Shown here: piece after piece, positions 7,956 to 14,799 of the stretch
How the letters are laid out: every line of letters starts with the position of its first letter
Position numbering within the stretch: the stretch's first letter is position 1
Assembly (NCBI GenBank): GCA_029259575.1
Contig: JAJDEX010000248.1
Coordinates: 1-14,799 of the forward strand
Direction of reading: 5' to 3'
DNA from: Planctomycetota bacterium
GTDB lineage: Bacteria > Planctomycetota > UBA1135 > GCA-002686595
DNA length: 14,799 nt
Made by a program: the position numbers and the translations under genes
Notes under the pieces: model-generated
What the model was told of the DNA's origin: nothing
Databases searched by the model: none
The model's input: the letters and a program-made list of their open reading frames with translations, nothing else

Positions 7956-9059
7956 ATGTCCAACACGTCCCTCACCCCCGACTTCGTCCGCACGCTCCCC
8001 AAGGTCAGCCTCCACGACCACCTCGATGGCAGTCTGCGCCCCATCTCCGTGCTCGAGTTGGCCAAGCAGCAGGGTTACGAGGGCCTGCCGGAGAGCGACC
8101 CCGATGCTCTGGGCGAGTGGTTCCGACGCGGCGCGAATCGGGGCAGCTTGGCGGAGTACCTCGAAGGTTTCGCCCACACGATCGCCGTGATGCAGACGAC
8201 GGAAGCGCTCGAGCGCGTCGCCTACGAGTACATCGAGGACATGCACGCCGACGGCATCGTCTACGCCGAGGTGCGCTTCGCCCCGCACTTCCACACCGAG
8301 GGCGGCCTGGGCCTCGACTCGGTCATGGATGCGGTGATCAAGGGCCTCGAGCGCGGGCGCGCCGAGTACAAGGTCGAATTCGGCGTCATCGTCTGCGCGC
8401 TGCGCAACCAGCCCGCGGAACTTTCGCTCAGCCTCGCTGAACTCGCCGTCGCCTGGTTCGGCCGCGGCGTCTGTGGCTTCGACCTCGCCGGCGAGGAAGC
8501 CGGACACCCGCCCAAGCATCACCTCGACGCGTTCCAGTACATCAAGCGCCACAACGGCTCGATCACGATCCACGCCGGCGAAGGATTCGGCCCCGAGAGC
8601 ATCTGGCAGGCGCTGCAGTTCTGCGGCACGCATCGCATCGGTCACGGCACGCGCCTGGTCGAGGACATCGCCGTCTACGAGGGCAAGGTCATCCGCCTCG
8701 GCAGCCTGGCGAGTTACGTGCTGGACCATCGCGTCCCGCTCGAGATCTGCCTCTCGTCGAACGTCCAGACGGGCGCGACGCCCTCCATGCAGGAGCACCC
8801 GTTCCCCACGTTCCTGGGCCTCGGCATGCGCGTCACGCTCAACACCGACAACCGTCTGATGAGCGGCGTGACGCTGACCGACGAGTACATGCTGGCGCAC
8901 AAGGAATTCGGTCTGGGCCTGCAAGCGATGGAGCGCGTGACCGTCAACGGCATCAACGCGGCCTTCTTCCGCTACAAGGACCGCGATCGGGTGCTCAAGG
9001 ACGTGATCCTGCCCGGCTACGCGGCCGCGCGCGAGGAACTGGGCATCGCGCCTTACTGA
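7956..9059 (+). CDS. add: Adenosine deaminase, 367 aa.
   Basis: ATG at 7956 (MSNTSLTPDFVRTLPKVSLHDHLDGSLRP), matching the ADA metal-binding H.HLDG..RP motif. Other matches: IVYAEVRFAPHFH, HAGE, and the C-terminal VTLNTDNRL (SLNTDD-like). GAGG lies 2 nt upstream, a short spacing. The 750-aa ORF in the track is a chimera with antisense gltX. Confidence 0.9.
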   Translation: MSNTSLTPDFVRTLPKVSLHDHLDGSLRPISVLELAKQQGYEGLPESDPDALGEWFRRGANRGSLAEYLEGFAHTIAVMQTTEALERVAYEYIEDMHADGIVYAEVRFAPHFHTEGGLGLDSVMDAVIKGLERGRAEYKVEFGVIVCALRNQPAELSLSLAELAVAWFGRGVCGFDLAGEEAGHPPKHHLDAFQYIKRHNGSITIHAGEGFGPESIWQALQFCGTHRIGHGTRLVEDIAVYEGKVIRLGSLASYVLDHRVPLEICLSSNVQTGATPSMQEHPFPTFLGLGMRVTLNTDNRLMSGVTLTDEYMLAHKEFGLGLQAMERVTVNGINAAFFRYKDRDRVLKDVILPGYAAAREELGIAPY

Positions 9060-9106: not shown

Positions 9107-10123
9107 ATGAACGAGATGCGCCTGCACGATCCCGAGGCCTTCGCCGGCCGCGTCGAGATTCGCACGATCGAGAGCTCGTTGCTCAAGGGCAACCCGCTGG
9201 GCGATCCGCACCGCCGGGACGTGCCGGTCTACGTCCCGCCCGGTGAGGCGCGCGACCTGCCCGTCGTGTTCGTGCTGACCGGCTACACGGGCCGCGGCCA
9301 GTCGCTCCTGGAATCGCATCCTTGGAAGGCGAGCGTCGCGCTGCAGTACGACCGTTTGGTCGCCACCGACAAGGCACCGCCGGTGCTGCTCGTGTTCCCC
9401 GATTGCTTCACGCGTTTGGGCGGCAGCCAGTACGTGAACAGCTCGGCGGTCGGTCTCTACGAGGACCACGTCGTGGAAGAACTCGTCCCGTTCGTCGATG
9501 CGCACTGGTCGACGCAATCCGGAGGCCGCGGCGTCTGCGGCAAGAGCTCCGGCGGCTTCGGCGCCCTGCACCTCGGCATGCATCACCCGGACACGTTTCA
9601 CGCCGTCGCGTCGATCAGCGGCGACTGCGCGTTCGAACACGGCTATGCGCACGACTTCCTGCCGGCCTGTCGCGGCCTGCTCGAGCACGGCGGCGACCCC
9701 CAGGCGTTCCTGACCAAGTTCGAGACCGATCACAAGCTGAAGGGCGACGGCCACGCGGTGATCTCGCTGCTGGCGATGGCGGCGTGCTACTCGCCGAACC
9801 CGATCGCGCCGTTGGGCTTCGACCTGCCGGTGAACCTCGAGACCGGGGAACGCATCAAGGACGTGTGGGACCGTTGGCTGCGCTTCGACCCGGTCGTCGC
9901 GGCGGCGGCGCACGTCGATGCGTTGAAGAGCCTGAAACTGCTGCACCTCGAAGCCGGCAAGCGTGACGAATTCCACCTGCAATTCGGCCTGCGGATCCTG
10001 GTGCGCAAGCTGAAGGAGCTGGGCGTCCCCCACGACCACGAGGAGTTCGAGGGCGGCCATTTCGACATCAACCACCGCTATCTCGGGGTCATCCCCAAGC
10101 TGGTGGCAGCCCTCCGGGGCTGA
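9107..10123 (+). CDS. Alpha/beta-hydrolase esterase (putative esterase / esterase-D-like family), ~338 aa.
   Basis: GxSxG nucleophile elbow GKSSGGFGAL, PVVFVLTGYTGRG, and the C-terminal HDHEEFEGGHFDINHRY (His of the triad). Start is ambiguous: TTG 9098, ATG 9107 or ATG 9116. There is no clear SD. Confidence 0.7.
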   Translation: MNEMRLHDPEAFAGRVEIRTIESSLLKGNPLGDPHRRDVPVYVPPGEARDLPVVFVLTGYTGRGQSLLESHPWKASVALQYDRLVATDKAPPVLLVFPDCFTRLGGSQYVNSSAVGLYEDHVVEELVPFVDAHWSTQSGGRGVCGKSSGGFGALHLGMHHPDTFHAVASISGDCAFEHGYAHDFLPACRGLLEHGGDPQAFLTKFETDHKLKGDGHAVISLLAMAACYSPNPIAPLGFDLPVNLETGERIKDVWDRWLRFDPVVAAAAHVDALKSLKLLHLEAGKRDEFHLQFGLRILVRKLKELGVPHDHEEFEGGHFDINHRYLGVIPKLVAALRG

Positions 10124-10301
10124 TCCCGTCGGTTCCATCGCCCCCGTGGGCGAAAACGCCGCAAGAACCGACCGCAGGATCTCCGGAAGGGATGAATAGC
10201 CCCGGGTCGAATCGGTAGCTTAGGCACCGTCGCTCGAACCCTGTCACCCTCGACCCCCCGAGGTGGCTGCCCCCGACCCGCGAGCGTCCGGAGACTGACC
10301 T

Positions 10302-10865
10302 ATGGGATTCCTGCCTGACGAGTGGACGCTGAGAACGACCTATATGGTCCTAGGTGCCGCCGGCGGTGCCATCTTGAGCATCCAGATGGTCCTGATGCTG
10401 ATCGGCGTCGACGGCGAAGGTGACTTCGATGCTGATGGCGACTTCGATCCGGGTAGCGACGGGATGGGACTGCTCTCCATCCGCGGCGTCGCCAGCTTCC
10501 TGACCTTCTTCGGCCTCGTCGGATGGTACGGACTCGAGAACGGCTGGTCGGCGGCCAAGTCGTCGATGGTCGGCCTGGCCGCCGGCTCCGCGATGATGCT
10601 GTTGGTCGCGTTCATCATGACGCAGTACCGCAAGCTCGCGTCCGAAGGCAACCTCGACCCGGGCAACGCCGTCGGTACGACGGCCTCGGTCTACCTGAAG
10701 ATCCCGGGCAACAACTCGGGTCGCGGGAAGATCACCGTGTCCATCCAGGACCGGACGCACGAATATCAAGCCACCACCAAAGGTCCGGAGATCCAGACGG
10801 GCTCCGAGGTTCGCGTGGTGCGCATGATCACCGAGAACACGTTCGAGGTGGAGGCGATCTCGTAG
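10302..10865 (+). CDS. nfeD: NfeD-family short membrane protein (YuaF/YqiJ-like): 3 TM helices plus a C-terminal OB-fold beta-barrel. It is the usual partner encoded upstream of flotillin.
   Basis: ATG at 10302 with GGAGA at a 7-nt spacing. TMs: YMVLGAAGGAILSIQMVLMLIGV, LLSIRGVASFLTFFGLVGWYGL, MVGLAAGSAMMLLVAFIMTQY. C-terminal OB-fold signature: GTTASVYLKIPGNNSGRGKITVSIQDRTHEYQATTKGPEIQTGSEVRVVRMITENTFEVEAI. It lies immediately upstream of an SPFH/flotillin gene. Confidence 0.8.
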   Translation: MGFLPDEWTLRTTYMVLGAAGGAILSIQMVLMLIGVDGEGDFDADGDFDPGSDGMGLLSIRGVASFLTFFGLVGWYGLENGWSAAKSSMVGLAAGSAMMLLVAFIMTQYRKLASEGNLDPGNAVGTTASVYLKIPGNNSGRGKITVSIQDRTHEYQATTKGPEIQTGSEVRVVRMITENTFEVEAIS

Positions 10866-10943
10866 CCGACCGGCTGCGACACGACCCTCTGCCCTGCTCC
10901 ACTCCCTTTCGCACTGGATCCAGATCCGACGGCAACTCCTTCG

Positions 10944-11027
10944 ATGCCGCCCATCCTGATCCTCGTATCCATCATCTTGGTTCTGGCAGGTTTCCTGCTG
11001 ATCCTCGCTAGGCGCACGAAGCGCTGA
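10944..11027 (+). CDS. Candidate 27-aa single-TM mini-protein (MPPILILVSIILVLAGFLLILARRTKR), paralogous to the flotillin N-terminal membrane anchor.
   Basis: ATG 10944 to TGA 11025-11027 in the nfeD-floT spacer. 15 of 19 aligned residues are identical to the FloT N-terminus (AIVLVLAGFMLILARRYKR), while the nucleotide sequence differs mostly at synonymous positions. No SD is present, and it is in the same frame as the nfeD TAG stop 26 codons upstream. It is too short for statistical gene calling. Confidence 0.4.
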   Translation: MPPILILVSIILVLAGFLLILARRTKR

Positions 11028-11050
11028 CATCGACCTCTAGGAGGCTCCAC

Positions 11051-12679
11051 TTGCTACAGACAATGCTCCCTCTCGCCGTGATTCAAGACGGCATCATGGA
11101 CGGGGACGCCGCGATGGTCTTCATCGTCCTCGCCATCGTTCTGGTCCTTGCGGGCTTCATGCTCATCCTGGCGCGTCGCTACAAGCGCTGCCCCTCGAAC
11201 AAGATCCTGGTCGTCTACGGACGTACCGCGAAAGGTCAGTCCGCGAAGCCCATCCACGGTGGTGGCACGTTCGTCTGGCCGCTGATCCAGAACTTCGACT
11301 ACCTCGCGCTGGATCCGATGCAGATCGAGATCCCGCTCGAGGGCGCGCTGTCCCTCGAGAACATTCGAGTCAGCGTTCCGTCGGCGTTCACCGTCGCGGT
11401 CGGCACCGAGAAGGAGGTCATGACCAACGCGGCCGTGCGTCTCTTGTCGCTGTCGCGCGGCGAGATCATCAAGCAGGCCGAGGACATCATCTTCGGTCAG
11501 TTGCGCCAGGTCATCGCCTCGATGCGGATCGAGGAGATCAACCGGGATCGCGACGTGTTCCTCAGCCGGGTCCAGAGCTCGCTCGAGCCCGAACTGGCGA
11601 AGATCGGCCTCGTGCTGATCAACGTGAACATCAAGGACATCACGGACGAGTCGGGTTACCTCGAGGCCATCGGTCGCAAGGCGGCCTCCGAGGCCATCAA
11701 CCAGGCCGAGATCGACGTGGCGCAGCAGAACCAGCGCGGCGCCATCGGTGTCTCCGAGGCCGAGAAGGAGCGCGCGATCCAGGTCGCCGAGCGCGAGAAG
11801 ACGCGAGACATCGGCACCAAGACCGCCGAGCGCGAGCGCGCCGTCCGCTTGGCCGAACTCGACAAGGAACGCGTCATCGGCGAGCAGACGTCGCAGTTCG
11901 AACAGGAGTCCCAGGTCCGTGACTCCGAACGCGAGATGCGGATCCGGGTCTCCGAGGCGAACGCCAAGGCCGTCACGGGTGAGAACGAGGCCAAGGCCAT
12001 CGTCGCCGCCACGAACGCCGACCTGAAGGTCCAGGAAGCCGACGCGTTCCAGCGTGGTGAGACGCGCCGTCGCGAGGCCGATGCCGCCGTCCGCGAAGCC
12101 CAGTACTTGGCCGAAGCCAAGGCGGCCGAGGCCGAGGGCAAGAAGAACGAGGCGCAGAAGCGCGCCGAGCTCGAGGCGTCCGCCAAGGCCGAGAAGGCCC
12201 AGACGATCGTCGACGCACAGGCGCAAGCCGAGAAAGCGCGCATCCTCGCCGAAGGTGAGGCGGCCGCATTGTTCGCCAAGCTCGAGGCTGAGGCGAAGGG
12301 TCAGTACGAGATCCTCGCCAAGAAGGGTATGGGTCTCAAGGAGATCGTCAACAGCTGTGGCGGCGCCGACAAGGCCTTCCAGATGTTGATGCTCGAGCAC
12401 ATCGACCACATCAGCGAAGTCGCCGCCAAGGCGATCAGCAACATCAAGTTCGACAAGGTCGTCGTCTGGGACGGGGGCAACTCTGGTTCCGGTGGCGGCG
12501 GCAAGTCGGGCACGGCCGGATTCCTCAGCAGCCTGGCGGGTTCGCTCCCGCCCGCGATGCAGATGATGAAGGACATCGGCGGCGTCGAGATGCCGGAGTT
12601 CTTCGGCAAGATGGTCTCGGACGCGAAGAAGGCCGAGGTCGTCGAGACCGAACAGGTCGAGGACGCGGCCTCCGAGTAG
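11051..12679 (+). CDS. floT: Flotillin-family SPFH/band-7 membrane scaffold protein (FloT/YuaG/YqiK-like), 542 aa.
   Basis: TTG at 11051 with AGGAGG (11039-11044) at a 6-nt spacing; the alternative ATG is at 11063. N-terminal TM anchor VFIVLAIVLVLAGFMLILARRYKR. The SPFH domain has the form KIL.VYGRT...PLIQNFDYLALDPMQIEIPLEGALS...VAVGTEK. It is followed by the long EA-rich coiled-coil flotillin region (AEREK, KAEAE repeats) and a Gly-rich C-terminal tail. The 606-aa antisense ORF over the same span is rejected. Confidence 0.9.
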   Translation: MLQTMLPLAVIQDGIMDGDAAMVFIVLAIVLVLAGFMLILARRYKRCPSNKILVVYGRTAKGQSAKPIHGGGTFVWPLIQNFDYLALDPMQIEIPLEGALSLENIRVSVPSAFTVAVGTEKEVMTNAAVRLLSLSRGEIIKQAEDIIFGQLRQVIASMRIEEINRDRDVFLSRVQSSLEPELAKIGLVLINVNIKDITDESGYLEAIGRKAASEAINQAEIDVAQQNQRGAIGVSEAEKERAIQVAEREKTRDIGTKTAERERAVRLAELDKERVIGEQTSQFEQESQVRDSEREMRIRVSEANAKAVTGENEAKAIVAATNADLKVQEADAFQRGETRRREADAAVREAQYLAEAKAAEAEGKKNEAQKRAELEASAKAEKAQTIVDAQAQAEKARILAEGEAAALFAKLEAEAKGQYEILAKKGMGLKEIVNSCGGADKAFQMLMLEHIDHISEVAAKAISNIKFDKVVVWDGGNSGSGGGGKSGTAGFLSSLAGSLPPAMQMMKDIGGVEMPEFFGKMVSDAKKAEVVETEQVEDAASE

Positions 12680-13465: not shown

Positions 13466-13509
13466 AACCCCGCAGGGCCTCGGACGAGGTGCTGCGGGGC
13501 TTCTTCGTG
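13466..13509. terminator. Bidirectional intrinsic terminator between convergent genes (the membrane protein on plus, the kinase on minus).
   Basis: Hairpin ccccgcag-gg-cctcg-ga-cgagg-tg-ctgcgggg (8-bp outer stem plus 5-bp inner stem), followed by CTTCTTCGTG on the plus strand. On the minus strand it is followed by TTCTTGTGTTTCAG. It starts 21 nt after the membrane-protein TGA and 19 nt before the kinase stop at 13528. Confidence 0.6.
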
Positions 13510-13527
13510 CCTGTGGTCCAAGTCCCG

Positions 13528-14799
13528 CTAGTCGGATTCCGAGGACTCGGCGGCGCGCGCACGGTCGAGCATGCCGTCGATCACGCCCAAATTGGGATGC
13601 TCCGGACCTAACAACTGCTCGAAGCGGCTCCGACTCCGTTCGAGGGCGTCGATCGCGGTCCGATACTCCCCGAGGTGGATCCGCGTCTCCCCCAGGTGCG
13701 CGAGCGACTTGGCCGACATCCTCTCGTTGCCCACCGCCTCGAACGTCGTGAGGGCGGCCTCGAATTCGTCGCGAGCCTCCTTGTACCGGCTCAGCCCGTA
13801 CAGGCACTGGCCACGCAAGTAGCGGCCGAGCGCCACGTCCCCGTGCCCCGTGCCGAAGTTCCAGCGGTCGATCTCGAGTGCCGCGTCGGTCACCTCGAGG
13901 GCCTCGGCGAACTGCCCAGCCTCGAACAGGAGCCGGGACTCGATCGTCAGGAAACCGCTCAACACACCATCGTGTTCGAGGTTGCGTCCGCGGGCCTCTT
14001 CGGCCCCCGAGCGGATGAGCGTCAACCGCTCCCCCAAGGTCCTCCCCATCATCGGCGACAGCGCCCAGGCCTGGATCGCCTCGAGTCGAAGCGCGTCACC
14101 CGGCGGCAAGTGCTCGCGCACGAAAGTGTGGGCCTCGGTGAGGTCGCGCACGTGCTCTTCGACGTTGCCGAGCTGCATGTGAATGGCGAGCCGAGTGTTC
14201 AGCAATCGCGCGCGGATGCGTTCGCCCCCGGTCACGTTGGCCGGCAGCTCGGCGAGCCCTCGATCGGCCCAGATCAGGGCCTCGTCGAGCTCGAAGACAC
14301 GCGTGAGTACGGTCGCGATCTCGGCGATCACTTCGACCCGGAAGATGCGGTTCTCCGGCAGGTCGCCGAGCTGTTCGAGGATCAGGTGCAGCTCTTGCAG
14401 CGCCCTCTCGTGGCGCTCGTCCGCAGCCATCTCGCGTGCACGGTTCAACGTCCCTGCGAGGGTCGTGAGCAGTTCGGCCTCCCGCTCCTCGACGGCGAGG
14501 TCCAGACGTTCGGCCTTCTCGATCGTCGAGAGGAGCTCCGATTCTCGTTCCTCGACGACACGATCGGAACGCAAGGCCCAGGCCCCTGCGCCGAGACTCA
14601 AGACGAGCGCCATCAGCGCCGCGGCCTGCCAGGGATTGCGCCTGCCGCGACGCACCATCCGCCCGACGAGCCCCGTGCGGCGCGCCAGGATCGGGAAGCC
14701 CGCCAGGTGTCGCTCCAGGTCCTCGGCCAATGCGGTCGCACTCTCGTAACGCTCGGCCGGCCGCTTGGCCATGCAGGTCGCGACGATCGTATCCAGGTC
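13528..14799 (-). CDS. Ser/Thr protein kinase, partial (the C-terminal part is in the window): end of the kinase domain, one TM helix, and an extracytoplasmic TPR-repeat domain. The 5' part lies beyond the window end.
   Basis: Translation of the last window bases continues the frame (..LDTIVATCMAKRPAERYESATALAEDLERHL), the typical end of a Hanks-type kinase catalytic domain. Then comes a juxtamembrane R-rich stretch and the TM helix WQAAALMALVLSLGAGAWAL. The long helical repeat region has TPR-like periodicity (LGRYLRGQCLYGLSRYKEARDEFEAAL, LAHLGETRIHLGEYRTAIDALERS). Confidence 0.7.
   Translation of the reverse strand, partial: DLDTIVATCMAKRPAERYESATALAEDLERHLAGFPILARRTGLVGRMVRRGRRNPWQAAALMALVLSLGAGAWALRSDRVVEERESELLSTIEKAERLDLAVEEREAELLTTLAGTLNRAREMAADERHERALQELHLILEQLGDLPENRIFRVEVIAEIATVLTRVFELDEALIWADRGLAELPANVTGGERIRARLLNTRLAIHMQLGNVEEHVRDLTEAHTFVREHLPPGDALRLEAIQAWALSPMMGRTLGERLTLIRSGAEEARGRNLEHDGVLSGFLTIESRLLFEAGQFAEALEVTDAALEIDRWNFGTGHGDVALGRYLRGQCLYGLSRYKEARDEFEAALTTFEAVGNERMSAKSLAHLGETRIHLGEYRTAIDALERSRSRFEQLLGPEHPNLGVIDGMLDRARAAESSESD

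Follow-up and report, generated by a model that had tools for sequence, protein, structure and literature searches.

A diverged stump in the nfeD–floT spacer of an uncultured marine planctomycete is probably the remnant of a flotillin gene

Results

A long nfeD–floT spacer holds a small open reading frame

The DNA studied here (the window) is a stretch of 14,799 nucleotides (nt), contig JAJDEX010000248.1 of assembly GCA_029259575.1, from an uncultured marine member of the Planctomycetota that is found in Tara and ENA metagenome assemblies. On its plus strand an nfeD-like gene (10302–10865), the first of a gene pair, is followed by a flotillin-family gene, floT (11051–12679). The spacer between them contains an open reading frame (ORF) of 27 sense codons and a TGA stop on the same strand (10944–11027), which we call the mini-ORF. 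A first-pass annotation of this DNA had proposed that the mini-ORF encodes the flotillin membrane anchor as a free peptide, kept by purifying selection as a third component of the operon. Our data indicate that the mini-ORF is the anchor part, with its frame still open, of a longer and diverged copy of the floT 5' end, and that this stump is probably a gene remnant.

The nfeD-like ORF ends at 10865 and floT starts at 11051, in agreement with the spacing of 185 bp given in the first-pass annotation. Such a spacing is unusual, as had also been said: gaps in 117 non-redundant related loci have a median of 19 nt, and just 1.7% of these loci have one of 185 nt or more. The gap is so much longer than the median because a repeat of 164 nt has been inserted.

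The mini-ORF runs from ATG at 10944 to TGA at 11025–11027 and encodes the peptide MPPILILVSIILVLAGFLLILARRTKR, which has a hydrophobic helix of 21 residues and keeps the RR.KR stop-transfer motif. Its last 19 residues agree with the FloT anchor AIVLVLAGFMLILARRYKR (11132–11188) at 15 positions. Over this match 40 of 57 nt are identical, and the differences are mostly synonymous, with every change listed earlier being real. Local DNA alignment of the spacer with the floT 5' end gave a score of 71, compared with 22 ± 3.6 (maximum 38) for shuffled sequences.

The translation signals of the mini-ORF are poor. No GGAG, GAGG or AGGA occurs in the 25 nt 5' of ATG 10944, which confirms the absence of a Shine–Dalgarno sequence; this is a weak test, as some real genes in the genome also have none. 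Folding prediction shows a partly paired ATG. Seven of the 27 codons are rare, and the codon adaptation index of 0.55 lies at the 13th percentile of windows from real genes. The codon choice had been described as less rich in GC at third positions (GC3) than that of neighbouring genes, and it is, but only slightly (0.81 compared with 0.86–0.90); in the frame directly upstream of the mini-ORF the GC3 is 0.40.

The spacer carries a copy of the floT leader and first 48 codons

The homology had been implied to be confined to the mini-ORF. It extends well beyond it: one gapless diagonal with an offset of 164 nt spans 10867–11030 against 11031–11194, both on the plus strand. The second of these units, copy 2, consists of the working floT leader (GGAGG at 11040–11044, TTG at 11051 and ATG at 11063) and floT codons 1–48. 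Copy 1 is a diverged stump with the same parts, a floT leader and the first 48 codons, at the canonical position of floT behind nfeD. The copies are too diverged for repeat finding by exact seeds, which misses the unit, and explicit alignment was used. The gapless 164-nt register was preferred to an alternative, gapped alignment that placed a 16-nt deletion in the leader.

Identity between the copies is not evenly spread, and the leader and linker are at the level of random sequence. It is 0.31 in the leader (10867–10898), where the background is 0.275, 0.63 in the first nine codons of the flotillin N-tail (10899–10925, 17 of 27 nt), 0.18 in the linker (10926–10958) and 0.70 in the transmembrane helix and stop-transfer motif, in which 10959–11027 aligns with floT 11123–11191 and 48 of 69 nt are identical. 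The N-tail segment reads PLPFALDPD in copy 1 and MLPLAVIQD in floT, and it lies 5' of the mini-ORF ATG. An identity of 17 of 27 nt is reached by only 0.18% of other diagonals, and this similarity is significant only on the diagonal that the anchor alignment had fixed beforehand; in a free local alignment the similarity 5' of ATG 10944 is not significant (180 of 1000 shuffles score as high). The shared N-tail motif LPxA(L/V) is outside the mini-ORF, and no start codon after the nfeD stop could translate it.

Copy 1 has lost the signals that copy 2 uses. In frame before 10944 there is no ATG, GTG or TTG, the position that matches the Shine–Dalgarno sequence of copy 2 reads GCCCT, and the original TTG and ATG starts are gone. 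Two residues of the RRYKRC motif that are invariant in the family are changed as well: ACG (Thr) replaces the Tyr codon TAC, and the TGA at 11025–11027 replaces the Cys codon TGC. Both units open with CGACC, and TCGAAC (11195–11200) follows copy 2, so that the junction carries a CGA(C/A) microhomology.

The distances to nfeD show which copy is in the old place. The anchor of copy 1 ends 159 nt past the nfeD stop, close to the family median of 157 nt (interquartile range 138–183), whereas the resident anchor ends 323 nt past it, a distance found in only 1.7% of loci. Copy 1 therefore stands where floT lay ancestrally, one unit upstream of the working gene.

The reading frame of the stump also meets its neighbours. 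The nfeD stop codon (TAG, 10863–10865) shares its frame with the stump and the mini-ORF, and no other stop intervenes, so that read-through would give NfeD a tail of 54 amino acids ending in a C-terminal helix. Both polymorphisms found directly after this TAG, at 10866 and 10870, would alter an amino acid of that tail. A frame open to this extent has a probability of about 0.15 by chance, and the shared frame is probably a coincidence. Fusion of the mini-ORF to floT by frameshifting or read-through was considered and rejected, since a stop interrupts the floT frame at about 11009, no slippery site occurs from there to the mini-ORF TGA, and read-through of that TGA ends at 11079–11081.

The copies differ as much as flotillin genes from separate genera

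Copy 1 was compared with resident floT over 24 codons, those ending at the final Arg codon (10953–11024), by the method of Nei and Gojobori. The proportions of synonymous and nonsynonymous differences (pS and pN) were 0.61 and 0.20, corresponding to a dS of about 1.3, a dN of about 0.23 and a dN/dS of about 0.18. For resident floT against selected flotillins of other genera, pS was 0.33–0.66 and pN 0.19–0.31. In the anchor, copy 1 shares 40 of 57 nt with the resident gene and 39, 39 and 38 with genes of other genera. Divergence between the copies thus reaches the level seen for flotillin genes across genera, with synonymous sites saturated. True orthologues with the same length of N-tail have identities to the resident gene of 0.16–0.31 in the leader, 0.52–0.67 in the N-tail, 0.27–0.61 in the linker and 0.54–0.71 in the anchor, and the four-segment profile of copy 1 matches theirs.

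The copies seem to have changed at different rates. Against 118 outgroups, copy 1 has about 6.6, 1 and 5.9 unique changes at first, second and third codon positions, and the resident gene has 1.7, 0 and 3.3. Copy 1 has evolved about 2.5 times faster (about 13.5 against 5.0 unique changes), with a borderline Tajima-type chi-square of about 3.9. In copy 1, changes at first and third codon positions are equally frequent, and no second-position change falls in the helix.

Two kinds of simulation bear on neutrality. When copy 1 was made neutral, the observed similarity was reached with a probability of 0.005–0.03 at the estimated split of 16 and 7 changes and of 0.08–0.17 at an even split of 12 and 11. 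When 16–23 neutral changes were simulated, similarity as high as that observed had a probability of 0.0001–0.026, and at most one second-position change had a probability of 0.0002–0.04. These simulations are a weak test, in that the functional copy accounts for half of the divergence and changes at first and third positions are tolerated in NUN codons. Because first-position swaps in NUN codons stay hydrophobic and third-position swaps are silent, a pattern of mostly synonymous or conservative changes discriminates poorly.

The earlier view that the mini-ORF is not a duplicate decaying from birth agrees with these results, as a dS of about 1.3 goes together with a pN of only 0.20. The stronger view, that purifying selection acted on the translated peptide, holds in part. 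The pattern is protein-like and neutral decay from birth is disfavoured; selection on the 27-residue peptide in particular is not specifically supported, and a dN/dS of about 0.18 between copies cannot separate constraint inherited from a flotillin from constraint on a peptide. The orthologue-like depth, the segmental profile and the N-tail motif outside the ORF make the constraint look like that of a flotillin N-terminus rather than one specific to the mini-ORF.

The second anchor is limited to one species-level clade

A six-frame scan of 152 related loci found a second anchor-like peptide only in the window and in six contigs of the same species, with a score of 71 compared with at most 38 elsewhere. 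The structure is carried by seven independent assemblies (Tara, ENA and Logan), so it is not an assembly artefact. The contigs of this species are 99–100% identical at the locus, the only polymorphisms in the spacer are those at 10866 and 10870, and all seven copies are identical across the mini-ORF. This invariance is uninformative, as local diversity is only about 0.5%. One contig of 1.95x coverage (L165) has at its 5' end (1–54) an inverted piece of nfeD, corresponding to window positions 10583 to 10530, joined at window position 10968, within the mini-ORF; the join is most likely a product of chimeric assembly at the contig end and not a variant.

The first-pass annotation had suggested a search for a conserved small transmembrane ORF in related spacers, and none was found in about 145 other nfeD–floT loci. 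The nearest relatives, whose FloT is 77–80% identical and whose gaps are 25, 13, 28 and −4 nt, have no second anchor and no small hydrophobic ORF. The long nfeD–floT spacers of other relatives also hold no small hydrophobic ORF. No FloT between 80% and 99% identity was found in scans of genomes and metagenomes or in a search of 5.8 billion proteins. Searches with the 42-residue translation of copy 1, a short hydrophobic query that gives low power, returned no candidate with a word index and only two spurious repeat proteins with exhaustive HMMER.

Lengthening of this intergenic region by a different route was observed in one relative (L092, 2399–2522), in which a unit of about 17 nt resembling GCGCTCCCAAACGG is repeated in tandem about four times and makes up the spacer of 122 nt. 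Initiation signals at the nfeD–floT junction vary widely across the phylum. Many related floT leaders are C-rich without a purine-rich Shine–Dalgarno sequence, for example CCAAGCCCCCCATG, and other related floT genes have strong GGAGG-type sites or overlap with nfeD (ATGA, TGATG). In some relatives one NfeD transmembrane helix resembles the FloT anchor of the same locus (L015, 107–163; L009, 2660; L039, 2666). In L015, AAVMVLVAIIMRFFRRMQS and AAVFVLFALIVAFARRYKR match at 10 of 19 positions. This likeness may be due to chance or may hint at matched helices in the pair.

Neighbouring genes and putatively imported tracts

The floT product has 542 residues when counted from the TTG at 11051, which lies 6 nt past GGAGG (11040–11044); ATG 11063 is the other possible start. 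It comprises an N-terminal anchor, an SPFH/Band 7 domain and an Ala/Glu-rich coiled-coil region. At the N-terminus, a hydrophobic anchor is followed by a basic stop-transfer motif, VFIVLAIVLVLAGFMLILARRYKRC, and the RRYKRC motif is common to all of about 140 homologue N-termini examined. Residues 48–226 match PF01145 with an E-value of 1.3e-26 (94.2 bits, cut-off 23.6), and thousands of homologues are called flotillin, YqiK or SPFH by the source databases. The nearest sampled flotillins are 73–80% identical. With the NCBIfam FloT equivalog NF058507 the product scores 141 bits, under the cut-off of 700. These matches identify the predicted protein as a member of the flotillin family and not as a Bacillus-type FloT equivalog.

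The nfeD-like gene encodes a predicted protein of 187 residues with N-terminal membrane helices and a putative C-terminal OB-like domain. Its match to Pfam PF01957 (residues 124–175) has an E-value of 0.022 and 15.4 bits, below the cut-off of 29.1, and NfeD_TM matches in the orthologues of this upstream gene in relatives are weak or faint. In nearly all related loci with upstream flank, an nfeD-like gene lies immediately 5' of the floT/SPFH gene. The predicted product of 10302–10865 is NfeD-like by gene order and this sub-threshold match only.

Several tracts around the spacer differ from the same species. Within floT, 25 of the 232 positions in 12064–12295 differ from all six same-species contigs, mostly at intervals of 3 nt and including V396A and Y408F, and the flanks are about 100% identical. 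This patch suggests that a short segment was imported by recombination from a relative of about 10% divergence. At the end of the window (13482–14799), in the C-terminal half of a minus-strand Ser/Thr kinase–TPR gene, identity to the otherwise nearly identical contigs of the species falls sharply from about 100% to 70–86% at the nucleotide level (79% in protein), to an allele of about 20–30% divergence. The drop begins near 13482 in intergenic DNA just past the stop of this gene and continues to the window end, and it reflects either replacement of a whole allele or a hypervariable gene. Further patches of 92–95% identity lie at 8401–8600 and 10001–10200 among sequence that is otherwise 98–100% identical within the species, which suggests that the locus is generally mosaic.

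Discussion

Partial gene duplicates and stumps are a known class, and the spacer described here is a fresh instance limited to one species-level clade. The stretch 10867–11030 is in a syntenic place, shows homology to only part of a functional gene, has lost its expression signals and carries altered residues that are invariant in the family, as is expected of a gene remnant. Whatever its origin, the stump is probably a remnant without present function, and the mini-ORF is most likely the surviving open part of an old flotillin reading frame. This reading explains the orthologue-like depth of divergence, the segmental profile and the N-tail motif that can no longer be translated, and it also explains the lost translation signals, the changed invariant residues, the apparent acceleration and the absence of the structure elsewhere. 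The apparent diverged-allele imports within 2.5 kb in the strain of the window were counted in its favour.

Copy 1 would have been translated as a flotillin-type N-terminus for most of its history and would have become a remnant only afterwards. The simplest route, which requires no selection on the stump, would be the joining in of a diverged floT allele with its own leader. Such an allele could have entered by homologous recombination on one side and by a join at the CGA(C/A) microhomology on the other, that is, by homology-facilitated illegitimate recombination, and the first 48 codons of the previous allele would have been left behind nfeD. Repeats that were about 35% diverged from the outset would be safe from deletion mediated by RecA. 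In a less simple variant, an in-place duplication at the microhomology would have been followed by a long period of translation of the upstream copy and by its later silencing. At present the stump would be transcribed within the nfeD–floT intercistronic RNA, and its translation would probably be weak or absent. The protein-like pattern of the stump may reflect inherited constraint together with the robustness of NUN codons.

Several observations weigh against the remnant reading. The frame of 27 codons is intact, with its ATG at the start of the helix and its stop directly past the positive charges, and there is no net indel over all 164 nt. The lack of second-position changes in the helix and the disfavouring of full neutrality require some period of constraint on copy 1, and recent constraint is indistinguishable from inherited constraint. 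The change from Tyr to Thr needs three substitutions, or a deletion with a compensating insertion nearby; it is unlikely in a short neutral phase and fits long evolution that kept the frame while free of the constraint on Tyr. The searches with copy 1, of low power as they were, also returned no donor-like flotillin N-terminus, no second paralogue and no anchor-only family that resembles it. The distances of NfeD and FloT to 80 relatives are congruent (mean residual −0.9, standard deviation 3.8), and a comparison of NfeD and FloT identity over 3,240 locus pairs gave no sign of horizontal replacement, the window being no outlier. A distant donor is therefore unsupported, and the donor may have come from an unsampled sister lineage. 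The absence of a Shine–Dalgarno sequence is itself compatible with translation, as genes without one occur in this genome and among floT orthologues.

The main alternative is that the 164-nt duplicate was selected as a functional anchor-only microprotein, translated from ATG 10944 without a Shine–Dalgarno sequence, that tunes flotillin assembly. We consider this unlikely but worth weighing. The idea that it is a bacterial microProtein and a lineage-specific third component of nfeD–SPFH operons, which would insert into the membrane with the FloT and NfeD helices and cap or tune their assemblies, is a little less likely again. Unselected perfect tandem duplications are lost fast by recombination, and an identical repeat of 164 nt would therefore have needed selection to persist. 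The microprotein would also account for the intact ORF, the kept helix and RR.KR motif, the unchanged second positions of the helix and the disfavouring of neutral decay (P of about 0.005–0.03 at the estimated split). The triple change of the Tyr codon with K and R kept would fit long frame-preserving evolution under a different constraint. The GC3 within the ORF exceeds that just 5' of it, genes without a Shine–Dalgarno sequence occur in the genome, and the ORF is fixed and invariant in all seven assemblies. That invariance says little, however, at the low local diversity. If only the 27-residue ORF had been selected, the N-tail motif outside it would have been randomised over a dS of more than 1, and it is conserved. 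The original Shine–Dalgarno sequence and start codons are gone, the ATG is predicted to be partly paired, the codons are poorly adapted and copy 1 appears to have accelerated. With constraint that extends outside the ORF, this apparent acceleration of about 2.5-fold and no counterpart in about 145 other loci, the proposal of a third operon component was not borne out.

It is improbable that the stump acts as a leader ORF or intercistronic regulator, either as RNA or as a translated upstream ORF that opens the floT ribosome-binding site, with the peptide being irrelevant. The geometry is suitable: the mini-ORF stop at 11025–11027 lies 12 nt before GGAGG and 23 nt before the floT start, and the predicted fold pairs the floT Shine–Dalgarno sequence and start with 10987–11000 in the mini-ORF (unpaired probability 0.15). 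Shuffled upstream sequence sequesters these signals about as strongly, however (mean 0.19; 29.5% of shuffles as low), the fold has a z-score of −0.8 without any Rfam match, and the kept amino-acid sequence is left unexplained. A search of the spacer for an RNA element, promoter, terminator, Rfam family, unusual fold or hairpin masking the Shine–Dalgarno sequence gave nothing above shuffled controls.

Plain tandem duplication in place with neutral decay from birth is, by a narrow step, the more improbable of these two. It would produce the tandem structure, the CGACC at the start of both units, the CGA(C/A) junction, the loss of the Shine–Dalgarno sequence and starts and the premature stop at the Cys codon. 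However, it does not agree with saturated synonymous sites at so low a pN or with the simulated neutral changes, and perfect repeats of 164 nt are unstable unless selected. Chance resemblance of two hydrophobic helices that end in a positive stop-transfer motif has next to no probability: transmembrane helices do look alike, and the NfeD helices of some relatives score up to 38–42 against their own FloT anchor, but the score of 71 against a maximum of 38 in the 152 loci, the DNA alignment far above its shuffles and the collinear similarity on one diagonal refute it.

Homology-facilitated illegitimate recombination can displace an allele and leave a gene stump, as described for the sequential displacement of effector and immunity genes of the type VI secretion system in Vibrio cholerae (PMC5361080), and the recombination mechanism itself is known (PMC3240628). 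As in those stumps, a diverged homologue adjoins a truncated piece of its predecessor at a junction of microhomology size, imports of diverged alleles lie nearby, and the remnant keeps a protein-like pattern of substitution from the time when it worked, until it was displaced. Unlike in the Vibrio case, no donor allele was found for the floT stump, the histories of nfeD and floT are congruent and the flotillin locus is no known arms-race locus. The exact tandem register of 164 nt fits in-place duplication equally well. The order of nfeD and then flotillin is that of the canonical two-gene operon (PMC11222466), from which the locus differs in its gap of 185 nt against a median of 19 nt.

Small proteins from other systems offer a second comparison. 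In plants and animals, microProteins are small single-domain proteins that arise by partial duplication and interfere with the assembly of the parent protein. The mini-ORF, too, stems from a single interaction-competent module, the anchor, of the larger oligomeric protein beside which it is encoded; unlike microProteins, it is limited to one species, has lost its own translation signals and is known here from sequence alone. KdpF, CydX and AcrZ are small hydrophobic subunits encoded in the operons of membrane complexes, and the mini-ORF resembles them as a single-pass peptide of about 30 residues in the operon of a possible partner. These subunits show conservation across genera, and none of them is a fragment of a neighbouring gene, whereas the mini-ORF is lineage-specific and a recognisable copy of the floT 5' end.

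If the microprotein reading were true, the mini-ORF would be the first anchor-only paralogue that regulates a bacterial flotillin and a rare bacterial microprotein born by partial duplication. If the stump is a remnant, as we consider probable, the case is ordinary but instructive: a stump can carry a strong inherited signature of purifying selection (dN/dS of about 0.2), and the codons of a hydrophobic helix mask its decay. Comparison of duplicate copies alone is therefore insufficient to call small membrane ORFs functional. The locus documents mosaic recombination at the flotillin locus of an uncultured marine planctomycete.

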